Shown here: positions 6,235 through 64,000 of the stretch, piece after piece | Layout of the letters: each line of letters opens with the position of its first letter | How positions within the stretch are numbered: position 1 is the stretch's first letter | Assembly (NCBI RefSeq): GCF_003790525.1 | Contig: NZ_CP033635.1 | DNA: 64,000 bases | Reading direction: 5' to 3' (one strand) | Source of the DNA: Escherichia coli | Lineage (GTDB): Bacteria > Pseudomonadota > Gammaproteobacteria > Enterobacterales > Enterobacteriaceae | Translations under genes and position numbers: made by a program | The notes under the pieces: model-generated | Seen by the model: the letters and a program-made list of their open reading frames with translations, nothing else | Database searches by the model: none | What the model was told of the DNA's origin: nothing

Positions 6235-6312
6235 AAGCCGGATAAGGCGCTCGCGCCGCATCCGGCAACGATGCCGACTGCCTGATGCGACGCTGACCGC
6301 GTCTTATCAGGC
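6235..6312. repeat. REP cluster between yjdM and yjdN
   Basis: GCCGGATAAGGCGC...GCATCCGGC and GCCTGATGCGACGCTG...TCTTATCAGGC palindromic units. Confidence 0.6.
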
Positions 6313-6377
6313 TTCCCTCTCATCTGTATAAATTTCGAACTACACTTAACTGGCTTCTCTTAACTGAGGTCACCATC

Positions 6378-6821
6378 ATGCCGTTAAGTCCCTACCTCTC
6401 TTTTGCCGGTAACTGTGCCGACGCAATTGCTTATTATCAACGTACGTTGGGCGCTGAACTGCTCTATAAAATCAGCTTCGGCGAAATGCCAAAATCAGCG
6501 CAGGATAGCGCCGAGAACTGCCCTTCCGGAATGCAATTTCCCGATACCGCCATCGCTCATGCCAACGTGCGCATTGCAGGAAGCGACATCATGATGAGCG
6601 ATGCTATACCGTCAGGAAAAGCCAGCTACTCCGGCTTTACGCTGGTGCTCGATTCGCAACAGGTCGAAGAAGGAAAACGCTGGTTTGACAACCTTGCCGC
6701 TAACGGAAAAATCGAAATGGCCTGGCAGGAAACTTTCTGGGCGCATGGCTTCGGCAAAGTCACCGATAAATTTGGCGTACCGTGGATGATTAATGTCGTC
6801 AAACAACAACCAACGCACTAA
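6378..6821 (+). CDS. yjdN: VOC/glyoxalase-family protein YjdN (PhnB), 147 aa
   Basis: ORF track 6378..6821; directly upstream of phnC. Confidence 0.9.
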   Translation: MPLSPYLSFAGNCADAIAYYQRTLGAELLYKISFGEMPKSAQDSAENCPSGMQFPDTAIAHANVRIAGSDIMMSDAIPSGKASYSGFTLVLDSQQVEEGKRWFDNLAANGKIEMAWQETFWAHGFGKVTDKFGVPWMINVVKQQPTH

Positions 6822-6845
6822 CCCGCCGGGAGGGCCGCCCTCCCG

Positions 6846-6915
6846 CACTGTCATCGAAATCTCGTTAACTCTTCATCCGTTAGTCACTTTTAGTTAACAA
6901 AATCGTCACAATAAT
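6846..6915 (+). promoter_or_regulatory. Pho-box array (PhoB sites) of the phnC promoter
   Basis: Run of 7-bp CTGTCAT-like half-sites at ~11-bp spacing (CTGTCAT, ATCTCGT, TCTTCAT, TAGTCAC, AGTTAAC, TCGTCAC) 40-110 bp upstream of phnC ATG. Confidence 0.5.
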
Positions 6916-6953
6916 CCGCCACGATGGAGCCACTTTTTTAGGGAGGCTGCATC

Positions 6954-7742
6954 ATGCAAACGATTATCCGTGTCGAGAAGCTCGCCAAAACCTTCAATCA
7001 GCATCAGGCGCTGCATGCGGTTGATCTGAACATTCATCACGGTGAAATGGTGGCTCTGCTTGGGCCGTCGGGTTCCGGCAAATCCACCCTTTTACGTCAC
7101 TTAAGCGGTTTGATTACCGGCGATAAATCTGCCGGTAGCCATATCGAGCTGCTGGGCCGCACAGTCCAGCGCGAAGGCCGCCTGGCCCGCGATATCCGCA
7201 AAAGCCGCGCCAACACCGGCTACATCTTCCAACAATTCAACCTGGTGAATCGCCTGAGCGTACTGGAGAACGTGCTGATTGGCGCGCTCGGCAGCACGCC
7301 GTTCTGGCGCACCTGTTTTAGCTGGTTCACCCGCGAGCAGAAACAGCGCGCGTTACAGGCGCTGACCCGCGTTGGCATGGTGCATTTTGCCCATCAGCGC
7401 GTTTCCACCCTCTCCGGCGGCCAGCAGCAGCGTGTGGCGATTGCCCGCGCGCTGATGCAGCAGGCGAAGGTGATTCTGGCCGATGAACCCATCGCCTCGC
7501 TGGACCCGGAATCGGCGCGCATCGTGATGGACACCCTGCGCGACATTAACCAGAACGACGGCATTACCGTGGTCGTCACGCTGCATCAGGTGGATTACGC
7601 CCTGCGCTACTGCGAACGCATCGTCGCCCTGCGCCAGGGGCACGTCTTCTACGACGGCAGCAGCCAACAGTTTGATAACGAACGTTTTGACCATCTCTAC
7701 CGCAGCATTAACCGCGTCGAAGAGAACGCGAAAGCTGCCTGA
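6954..7742 (+). CDS. phnC: Phosphonate ABC transporter ATP-binding protein PhnC
   Basis: ORF track; Walker [13 protein letters not shown] signature LSGGQQQR, Walker B ILADEP. Confidence 0.95.
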
Positions 7743-8847: not shown

Positions 8848-9627
8848 ATGCAAACCATCACCATCGCCCCACCCAAGCGCAGCTGGTTCTCGCTTCTGAG
8901 CTGGGCCATTGTTCTCGCCGTGTTGGTCGTCTCGTGGCAGGGCGCGGAAATGGCCCCGCTTACGCTGATCAAAGACGGCGGCAACATGGCGACGTTCGCT
9001 GCCGACTTCTTCCCGCCCGATTTCAGCCAGTGGCAGGATTACCTCACCGAAATGGCCGTCACGCTGCAAATCGCCGTCTGGGGCACCGCGCTGGCGGTGG
9101 TTCTCTCCATCCCCTTCGGTCTGATGAGCGCCGAAAACCTGGTGCCGTGGTGGGTTTACCAGCCCGTACGCCGCCTGATGGACGCCTGCCGCGCCATTAA
9201 CGAAATGGTCTTCGCCATGCTGTTCGTGGTCGCCGTCGGCCTTGGCCCGTTCGCTGGCGTGCTGGCGCTGTTTATCCACACCACCGGCGTGCTCTCCAAG
9301 CTGCTTTCCGAAGCGGTAGAAGCGATCGAACCCGGCCCGGTGGAGGGCATTCGCGCCACCGGTGCCAACAAGCTGGAAGAGATCCTCTACGGCGTGCTGC
9401 CACAGGTGATGCCGCTGCTGATCTCCTACTCCCTCTATCGTTTCGAATCCAACGTCCGCTCGGCGACCGTCGTCGGCATGGTCGGTGCAGGCGGGATCGG
9501 CGTCACCCTGTGGGAAGCGATTCGCGGTTTCCAGTTCCAGCAAACCTGCGCCCTGATGGTGCTGATTATCGTCACGGTCAGCCTGCTGGATTTCCTCTCT
9601 CAACGGTTGCGTAAGCACTTTATCTGA
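8848..9627 (+). CDS. phnE: Phosphonate ABC transporter permease PhnE (intact allele)
   Basis: Single uninterrupted 259-aa ORF in track; multi-TM permease; GGAG RBS upstream. Confidence 0.9.
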
Positions 9628-23480: not shown

Positions 23481-25089
<1,609 letters not shown>

Positions 25090-37369: not shown

Positions 37370-37966
37370 TTAATCTGATCTCCGCTGCAACAGTTTCGCC
37401 AAATTAATCGACTCGACCAGCTGTGTCCGGTTGATCCGGGGTGAGTTGAGATCCATCACTTTTTGCCATAGTTCGATGGCTTGCGCGTAATTCGCCTGCA
37501 TAAACGCATCGGAAGCCAGCAGCATCAGAGCGGTGATTTCGTTAGAGTCCAGCGCGAGGGCTTTGTCGATCATTGCGCGAGTCTGGGCGGTCATATGCTG
37601 GCTGGCCTGGTAATAAAGCACCGTCGCCAGCGCCGCATACAGTTCAGCGTTCTCACCACGTAGTTGCAACGCCTGACGGTACGCCAGCAGCGAATTGCTG
37701 TAATCGTTTTGCCACAGATAATACTCGCCCAGTAACGCCCATTGTTCGCTGTTTTGTGGATTAGCGCGGATTTTATCCTGCAATGCCTGAAGCTGCGCTT
37801 CCGGGGTTTGCTGGCTGGCAAACTGATGTAGCGGATCGCGCTGACGTTGATACTCCGCACGTACCGCCTGCCATTTTGGGCTTAACAGATAACTGCCGAT
37901 ACAGAGAAATACCATCAAAATCGTGAGTGTTGTCAGCATTTTCACCGGTATTTGAGGCTGTTTCAT
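37370..37966 (-). CDS. nrfG: Nrf heme lyase TPR subunit NrfG, 198 aa
   Basis: ORF track 37370..38032 trimmed to [13 protein letters not shown] start; TPR repeats. Confidence 0.9.
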
Positions 37967-59851: not shown

Positions 59852-60754
<903 letters not shown>

Positions 60755-63118: not shown

Positions 63119-63137
63119 ATCAAATATTACAGAACGA

Positions 63138-64000
63138 TTAATCCACGTATTTCATCGCGACCCTTGAAGTCAGGCGCGTGATAAGTTCGTAAGCGCTTAC
63201 TTTCGTCATTTCAGCGATACGTTCTACGGGCAAACCTTCGCCCCATAAAATGACCGGGTCCCCGGCTTTATCCTGCGCCTGTGGACCTAAGTCTACGCAG
63301 ATCATATCCATCGCGACTCGCCCGACAATCGGCACTTCGCGACCGTTCACCAGCACTGGCGTACCGGACGGCGCGGCGCGCGGATAACCATCGCCATAAC
63401 CCATCGCGACTACGCCCAGGCGGGTATCACGTTCGCTTACCCAGGTTCCACCATAACCGACAGGCTCTCCGGCTTTGTGCTCACGCACGGCAATCAGGCT
63501 GGAGGTTAGTGACATCACTGGCTGACAGCCAAAATCGGCACCGGTGGAACGATCTTCCAGCGGCGAGACGCCGTAAAGAATGATGCCCGGACGCACCCAG
63601 TCAAAATGCGACTGTGGCCACAGCAGAATGCCACCCGATGCGGCAATGGAACGTTGACCTGGTTTGCCTTCGCAAAAGGTATTAAAGATAGCGAGTTGTT
63701 TCTCGGTTGCGCCGCATTTTGGTTCATCCGCGCGCGCAAAATGGCTGACGATATTCACCGGCTGACGAACGTTTTTACACTGGGTCAGGCGATGATAAAA
63801 CGCCTCAGCCTGTTCCGGCCTTACGCCCAGACGGTGCATACCGGTATCGAGTTTCATCCAGACGGTAACCGGCTCGTCCAGGCTGGCCTCTTCCAGCGCA
63901 GCCAGCTGTTCTTCGTTATGCACGGCGGTATGAAAATGTTGCGCAGAAATCGTCGGCAGATCTCTGGCATCAAAAAAGCCTTCGAGTAACAGTACAGGTT
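63138..64000 (-). CDS. alr: Alanine racemase Alr, C-terminal ~287 aa (5' end beyond window)
   Basis: Track ORF 63138..63923 starts at an internal Met; frame stays open to window edge; alanine racemase C-terminal domain; synteny alr-tyrB. Confidence 0.85.

Follow-up and report, generated by a model that had tools for sequence, protein, structure and literature searches.

The region at positions 6840-6953 of the window (the whole 64-kb stretch of Escherichia coli DNA that was analysed) is, with high confidence, the PhoB-activated sigma-70 promoter of the phn operon for phosphonate uptake and C-P lyase, in which five half-sites for PhoB stand on the (+) strand in an exact 11-bp register and the -10 hexamer, judged from comparative sequences, is most likely CACGAT rather than CACAAT (Table 1). 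Since it is flanked by yjdN and phnC, the region is the yjdN-phnC intergenic region and the promoter of the phnCDEFGHIJKLMNOP operon; phnC is followed by genes annotated as phnD, phnE and phnF. Positions 6300-7100 match E. coli SMS-3-5 (NC_010498.1) at 100% identity, and the same stretch is found in 5,414 of the 5,426 complete E. coli genomes. The phnC promoter is already known and well studied; the window carries the SMS-3-5 allele of it, which is nothing new in kind, and confirming a textbook promoter of the Pho regulon adds little. What is added is modest and consists of a count of five half-sites instead of six, a comparative placement of the -10 hexamer at CACGAT and the conservation of half-sites that are sub-optimal.

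Table 1. Features of the yjdN-phnC intergenic region and its flanking genes, with positions in the window.
Feature	Position	Strand	Description
yjdN	6378-6821		Annotated gene; stop codon 6819-6821
GC-rich hairpin	6827-6845	+	CGGGAGGGC-C-GCCCTCCCG; perfect 9-nt inverted repeat; no T run
Slot 1	6848-6858	+	Distal consensus CTGTCAT, then A/T-rich GAAA; TGTCATC at 6849, 9.1 bits, the best half-site of the array
Slot 2	6859-6869	+	TCTCGTT at 6860, -9.0 bits; not a half-site
Slot 3	6870-6880	+	Weak half-site TCTTCAT; CTTCATC at 6871, 3.8 bits
Slot 4	6881-6891	+	TAGTCAC, then TTTT; AGTCACT at 6882, 5.0 bits
Slot 5	7-mer at 6893	+	AGTTAAC, then AAAA; GTTAACA, 4.0 bits
Slot 6	7-mer at 6904	+	TCGTCAC, then AATA; CGTCACA, 7.4 bits
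Promoter-proximal Pho box	6892-6913	+	Slots 5 and 6; about -40 to -19, in the place of the -35 element; PhoB site identified by ChIP
Probable -10 hexamer	6920-6925	+	CACGAT; exactly 10 nt 3' of the TGTCAY of slot 6 (here CGTCAC)
Predicted transcription start	6932	+	A in conserved GCCAC; placed 7 nt after the -10 hexamer, inside CGcCA..ATg.gGCcAC
Shine-Dalgarno of phnC	6940-6946	+	AGGGAGG, read from the sequence, 7 nt 5' of the ATG; GAGG conserved
phnC	6954-7742	+	262-aa ORF, ATG at 6954; annotated phnC in NC_010498.1; first gene of phnCDEFGHIJKLMNOP

A phased array of PhoB half-sites upstream of phnC

The 58 ChIP-seq site sequences behind the PhoB matrices come from Fitzgerald et al. 2023 (PMC10294691, Table 1); the phnC site was excluded, so that the matrix test is not circular. 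The half-site matrix is 7 nt long, and 1.1% of the window positions reach at least 3.5 bits with it. Five half-sites at or above this threshold begin at 6849, 6871, 6882, 6893 and 6904, spaced by exact multiples of 11 bp on the (+) strand, and slot 1 is found at about -84 to -74 relative to the predicted transcription start. The region thus contains the defining feature of a Pho box, which is at least two direct TGTCA-like repeats at 11-bp centre spacing with A/T-rich spacers. The earlier note had reported six CTGTCAT-like heptamers, five of which are in-phase half-sites; the sixth, slot 2, is empty here and in all 28 related sequences, so the count becomes five. With slot 2 at -9.0 bits, the region does not hold an array of six contiguous half-sites (three full Pho boxes), and because this slot is empty, a continuous array of six protomers would put one of them on non-specific DNA.

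The phasing is confined to this array. At least five in-phase matches are found in one place only among 127,878 starts on both strands of the window, and all other starts with at least four in-phase matches belong to this array, read in a shifted register. The period of 11 alone works, as periods of 7-10 and 12-15 give at most one match. In 5000 dinucleotide-preserving shuffles of 6840-6953, the in-phase sum of the real sequence was never equalled (z = 9.4). The autocorrelation of the plain bases has its peaks at lag 11 (0.40) and lag 22 (0.39). The approximately 11-bp periodicity upstream of phnC that the earlier note had described, and for which it had named autocorrelation and a PhoB weight-matrix scan as checks, is borne out by both of them and is far beyond chance.

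Scoring of full sites gives the same register. The best 18-mer, GTTAACAAAATCGTCACA at 6893-6910, scores 14.8 bits with the phnC-free matrix and ranks first among 127,966 window positions, and the top four 18-mers in 6780-6990, which begin at 6893, 6882, 6871 and 6849, are all on the (+) strand in a single 11-bp register. Isolated 18-mer matches of 13.0-13.4 bits, close to the phnC box (14.5 bits), are found elsewhere at 63125-63142 (-), 37699-37716 (+), 60086-60103 (-) and 23565-23582 (+), none of them with in-phase neighbours, and probably represent background or "inert" sites such as those described by Fitzgerald et al. Because such single 12-13-bit 18-mers occur elsewhere in the window, the matrix is by itself not very specific.

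The MEME motif of both ChIP studies of K-12 corresponds to the site of the 18-mer at 6893-6910. The PhoB motif from ChIP-chip, AATTAACCAAATCGTCAC, is centred at -53.5 from the start codon (PMC3465305), and its equivalent in the window, 6892-6909, has its centre at exactly -53.5. The PhoB site from ChIP-seq, ATTAACCAAATCGTCACA, has its peak centre at 4,325,211, 46 nt upstream of the K-12 phnC ATG at 4,325,165 (PMC10294691), which maps to window position 6908. In the same study, phnC RNA drops from 32,470 in the wild type to 13 when phoB is deleted, and loss of PhoB lowers sigma-70 occupancy more than 2-fold (PMC10294691). Reporter fusions have also found phnC activation to be PhoB~P-dependent and late, and phnC of EHEC O157:H7 is induced 81-fold on Pi starvation. 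The tandem PhoB sites and the strong phosphate-starvation induction that had been proposed for this region are supported by these published ChIP and RNA data for K-12, from which PhoB occupancy and PhoB dependence of the SMS-3-5 promoter would be expected by analogy.

It is extremely unlikely that the phased pattern serves a factor other than PhoB, such as an OmpR-family regulator like CreB (TTCAC-N6-TTCAC), PhnF bound to an operator, or H-NS on bent DNA. In favour of such a factor, slots 3 and 4 (TTCAT-N6-GTCAC) resemble a cre tag, and two copies of GTTAAC form the centre of an imperfect inverted repeat in the region. However, the PhoB matrix matches the array in a single orientation and a single register, both PhoB occupancy and near-total PhoB dependence are published, and the ChIP-seq table carries no H-NS flag for the phnC region (PMC10294691). 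The GTTAAC inverted repeat was also considered as an operator in its own right and rejected, as it is not conserved outside E. coli (the relatives have CTCAAC versus CTTAAC). The upstream copy of GTTAAC (6864-6869) is identical to the slot 5 half-site and lies between slots 1 and 3, 4 nt off the 11-bp phase; its AAC is conserved across the Enterobacteriaceae, for which the PhoB register gives no explanation.

Conservation of the half-sites

A scan for PhnC with one genome per species returned 80 loci. Among them are 26 loci of Enterobacteriaceae, including Citrobacter, Kluyvera, Pseudocitrobacter, Enterobacter, Leclercia, Lelliottia, Silvania, Huaxiibacter, Buttiauxella, Shimwellia and Hafnia, as well as a distant set of 54 phnC-homologue loci from Pseudomonas, Stutzerimonas, Vibrionaceae, Aeromonas, Alcaligenaceae and others, for each of which the best four-slot array was taken. 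The automatic slot finder anchored the Hafnia locus wrongly; with this locus excluded, the counts of geometry cover 27 correctly anchored sequences.

The alignment of the E. coli promoter with those of the 26 other Enterobacteriaceae loci is essentially gap-free, and its conservation line reads ctgTCatc ... AAcTcTTCA ... G.aAC ... cTTAAC..AA..GTCAcAtT ... CGcCA..ATg.gGCcAC. The conserved blocks are exactly slots 1, 3, 4, 5 and 6 and the CA..AT hexamer. In slot 1, TGTCATC is kept in 23 of the 28 sequences and the next 11 nt vary freely. Slot 2 has a mean of -13 bits, scoring at most -8.5 bits in 27 of the 28 sequences and reaching 3.5 bits in none. CTTCA of slot 3 is found in nearly all Enterobacteriaceae, slot 4 of the relatives reads AGTCAC, AGTAAC, CGCAAC or CGAAAC and scores mostly 0.4-6.2 bits, and slot 5 scores weakly, yet its TTAAC sequence is conserved. 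Slot 6 scores at least 3.5 bits in all 28 sequences. Among seven E. coli strains, variation is confined to the hairpin loop, the spacers, slot 2 and bases 1 and 7 of slot 5.

The three upstream half-sites were weighed against the possibility that only the proximal box (slots 5-6) works and that slots 1, 3 and 4 either survive from an ancestral second box or match by chance, which we regard as unlikely. The proximal box alone falls in the ChIP-validated score range (14.8 bits). The 18-mer at slots 3-4 scores 6.3 bits and that at slots 1-2 scores 3.0 bits, and both are below every ChIP-validated training site (minimum 7.0 bits), so that PhoB occupancy of the upstream slots is only predicted. MEME reported a single site in both ChIP studies, the slot 4 score is as low as 0.4 bits in the Enterobacter group and 4 of the 28 relatives lack slot 1, all of which would fit a promoter with one working box. 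Against this, TGTCATC of slot 1 and CTTCA of slot 3 are kept across genera, whereas the spacers and slot 2 vary freely; chance phasing is excluded by the shuffles and by the uniqueness of the array in the 64 kb; and tandem four-slot arrays are the rule upstream of the distant phnC homologues. Because they are conserved, slots 1, 3 and 4 are most likely functional, and cooperative binding to them most likely raises the occupancy of the weak proximal box.

The -10 hexamer and the transcription start

The Pho box of a Pho promoter lies 10 bp upstream of the -10 hexamer (PMC1906773), in the place of the -35 element, and the phnC promoter has this arrangement by sequence when the hexamer is read as CACGAT. 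All 27 correctly anchored Enterobacteriaceae sequences have CACGAT, CAGCAT or CACCAT at offset 10 from the TGTCAY of slot 6. In the distant set, xAxxxT is found downstream of the array at offset 10 in 44 of the 54 loci, while every other offset from 0 to 21 has at most 7. It is because offset 10 is conserved both in the Enterobacteriaceae and in the distant homologues, and because it fits the published rule, that the -10 hexamer is placed at CACGAT. A transcription start near 6932 would give phnC a 22-nt leader. The stretch CGCCACGATGGAGCCAC at 6917-6935, which spans the proposed -10 hexamer and start, is among the most conserved intergenic non-coding stretches across the genera.

A scan of the intergenic region for the sigma-70 consensus detected no promoter and no TTGACA-type -35 element with a 16-18 nt spacer, which is expected of a promoter that lacks a -35 element and matches the -10 consensus at 3 of 6 bases. 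TTAACA was considered as a -35 element and rejected, since its distance is 20 nt to CACGAT and 7-10 nt to the other candidate hexamers.

These other candidates belong to a geometry that follows the earlier note, which had placed the -10 hexamer at CACAAT: the -10 hexamer would be CACAAT or AATAAT (6907-6915), the activating Pho box would be formed by slots 4-5 (6881-6899) and the CGTCAC at 6904-6909 would fall in the spacer. The classical phnC "pho box", CTGTTAGTCACTTTTAATTAAC, is drawn further upstream than the proximal box, at 6877-6898, and would fit such a different -10 hexamer; a literature search with the classical pho-box string CTGTTAGTCAC returned unrelated human primer matches only. 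CACAAT and AATAAT are also nearer to TATAAT, with identities of 4/6 and 5/6 compared with 3/6 for CACGAT. This geometry is nevertheless very improbable. Slot 6, which it would leave in the spacer, is the most conserved and the strongest of the proximal half-sites and is included in the motifs of both ChIP studies, with the ChIP-seq peak centre at 6908. AATAAT is not conserved, being replaced by ATTGAT, ACTTCC or ATTTCA in the relatives, and CACAAT (6907-6912) overlaps the slot 6 half-site and is off the conserved -10 position. In the distant homologues, xAxxxT is found at offset 0 in 1 of the 54 loci, compared with the 44 at offset 10. Moreover, a PhoB protomer on slot 6 would overlap a -10 hexamer at 6907-6915 and repress, whereas phnC is activated about 2500-fold.

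Comparison with other Pho promoters

The phnC promoter of K-12 is the same locus, and its five half-site cores, CACGAT and 5' leader are all identical to those of SMS-3-5. Six intergenic differences separate the two strains: in the hairpin loop and at 6859, 6862, 6878, 6893 (G for A) and 6899 (A for C). In the proximal box, SMS-3-5 and K-12 are unlike at 2 of 18 bases, neither of which falls within the TCA/TAA cores. SMS-3-5 has G at 6893 and A at 6899 where K-12 and five other E. coli strains have A and C, and these two bases raise the score of the proximal box from 12.8 bits in K-12 to 14.5 bits in SMS-3-5, slightly nearer to the consensus.

Among the multi-box Pho promoters, pstS has two tandem Pho boxes and ugpB has several. 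Like phnC, they contain head-to-tail TGTCA repeats at 11-bp spacing upstream of a box that replaces the -35 element and lies 10 bp from the -10 hexamer. Unlike in pstS and ugpB, every proximal half-site of phnC is off consensus, the affinity of phnC is the lowest of the five promoters tested, and the array is broken by an empty slot before the lone consensus half-site. Among the five Pho promoters compared by Gao and Stock, phnC shows the highest PhoB~P off-rate, the lowest affinity and the latest onset (PMC4447250), and an EMSA gave a KD of 1.7 uM for phnC, about 7-fold weaker than for phoB (PMC6194859). These measurements concern K-12, and low affinity of the SMS-3-5 promoter would follow by analogy.

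The promoters of the phnC homologues in Pseudomonas, Vibrionaceae and Alcaligenaceae contain, as in E. coli, four in-phase half-sites with xAxxxT at 10 nt, and their penultimate slot is typically a weak TTAAC/TTAAT-like sequence, as it also is in E. coli. They differ from E. coli in that the upstream box is usually stronger (6-9 bits per half-site) and that no separate distal half-site is present. Judged on the phnC homologues, this suggests a somewhat wider conservation of the phased array. The penultimate TTAAC/TTAAT-like repeat was seen in Pseudomonas, Paenalcaligenes and Pollutimonas (four loci and others), about 70-90 nt upstream of the phnC homologue.

Proposed mechanism of activation

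The phased array, its conservation and the geometry of box and hexamer are observed in the window and in the comparative sequences. According to the Gao and Stock group, a single PhoB protomer spans each 11-bp repeat and meets TGTCA in the major groove, while the A/T-rich bases provide a minor-groove contact. We propose that, under Pi limitation, dimers of phosphorylated PhoB would bind head-to-tail on the 11-bp direct repeats along one face of the helix, where each protomer would read the TGTCA-like tract of its repeat through the major groove and the A/T-rich tract through the minor groove. The proximal box, 10 bp 5' of the weak CACGAT hexamer, would recruit RNA polymerase via region 4 of sigma-70; since there is no usable -35 element and the -10 hexamer is poor, the promoter would be essentially off without PhoB. 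Slots 3-4 would act as a second, weaker box and slot 1 as a lone consensus half-site two turns further upstream. Because the overall affinity is low, the operon would be switched on late in starvation.

We also propose, tentatively and with some doubt, that the non-consensus features are a selected design, in which low affinity combined with high cooperativity gives the costly phn operon a late, switch-like onset. This proposal is based on the weak half-sites, which keep the same "wrong" bases across genera, as in the penultimate TTAAC, and on the lone consensus half-site two turns upstream, whose partner slot is empty. The conserved TTAAC repeat may double as a contact for region 4 of sigma-70 or may tune affinity. 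That sub-optimal half-sites are conserved over large evolutionary distances fits the published idea that Pho genes are activated in an order given by the affinity of their binding sites (PMC4447250).

The hairpin downstream of yjdN and the integrity of phnE

The GC-rich hairpin marks the upstream edge of the promoter, with 5 nt between it and the yjdN stop codon and 2 nt between it and the first PhoB half-site. Its RNA fold has a free energy of -15.8 kcal/mol, which is not exceptional in comparison with shuffles (z = -1.8). RNAalifold on this hairpin recovered no covariation from a poor alignment, and an Rfam scan of 6700-7050 at E <= 1 gave no match. GC-rich inverted repeats of different sequence are found in the same place in Citrobacter, Kluyvera and Enterobacter, and a different GC-rich sequence replaces the hairpin in three Enterobacter/Lelliottia loci. 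The hairpin looks like a terminator or a 3'-end stabiliser for yjdN and may insulate phnC from yjdN read-through.

Further downstream, phnE at 8848-9627 is an uninterrupted 259-aa ORF in the window strain. The phnE gene of K-12 is said to have been described by Makino in 1991 as cryptic, with an 8-bp insertion. As phnE of the window strain is intact, unlike this cryptic K-12 gene, the operon of the window strain is probably functional for phosphonate uptake.
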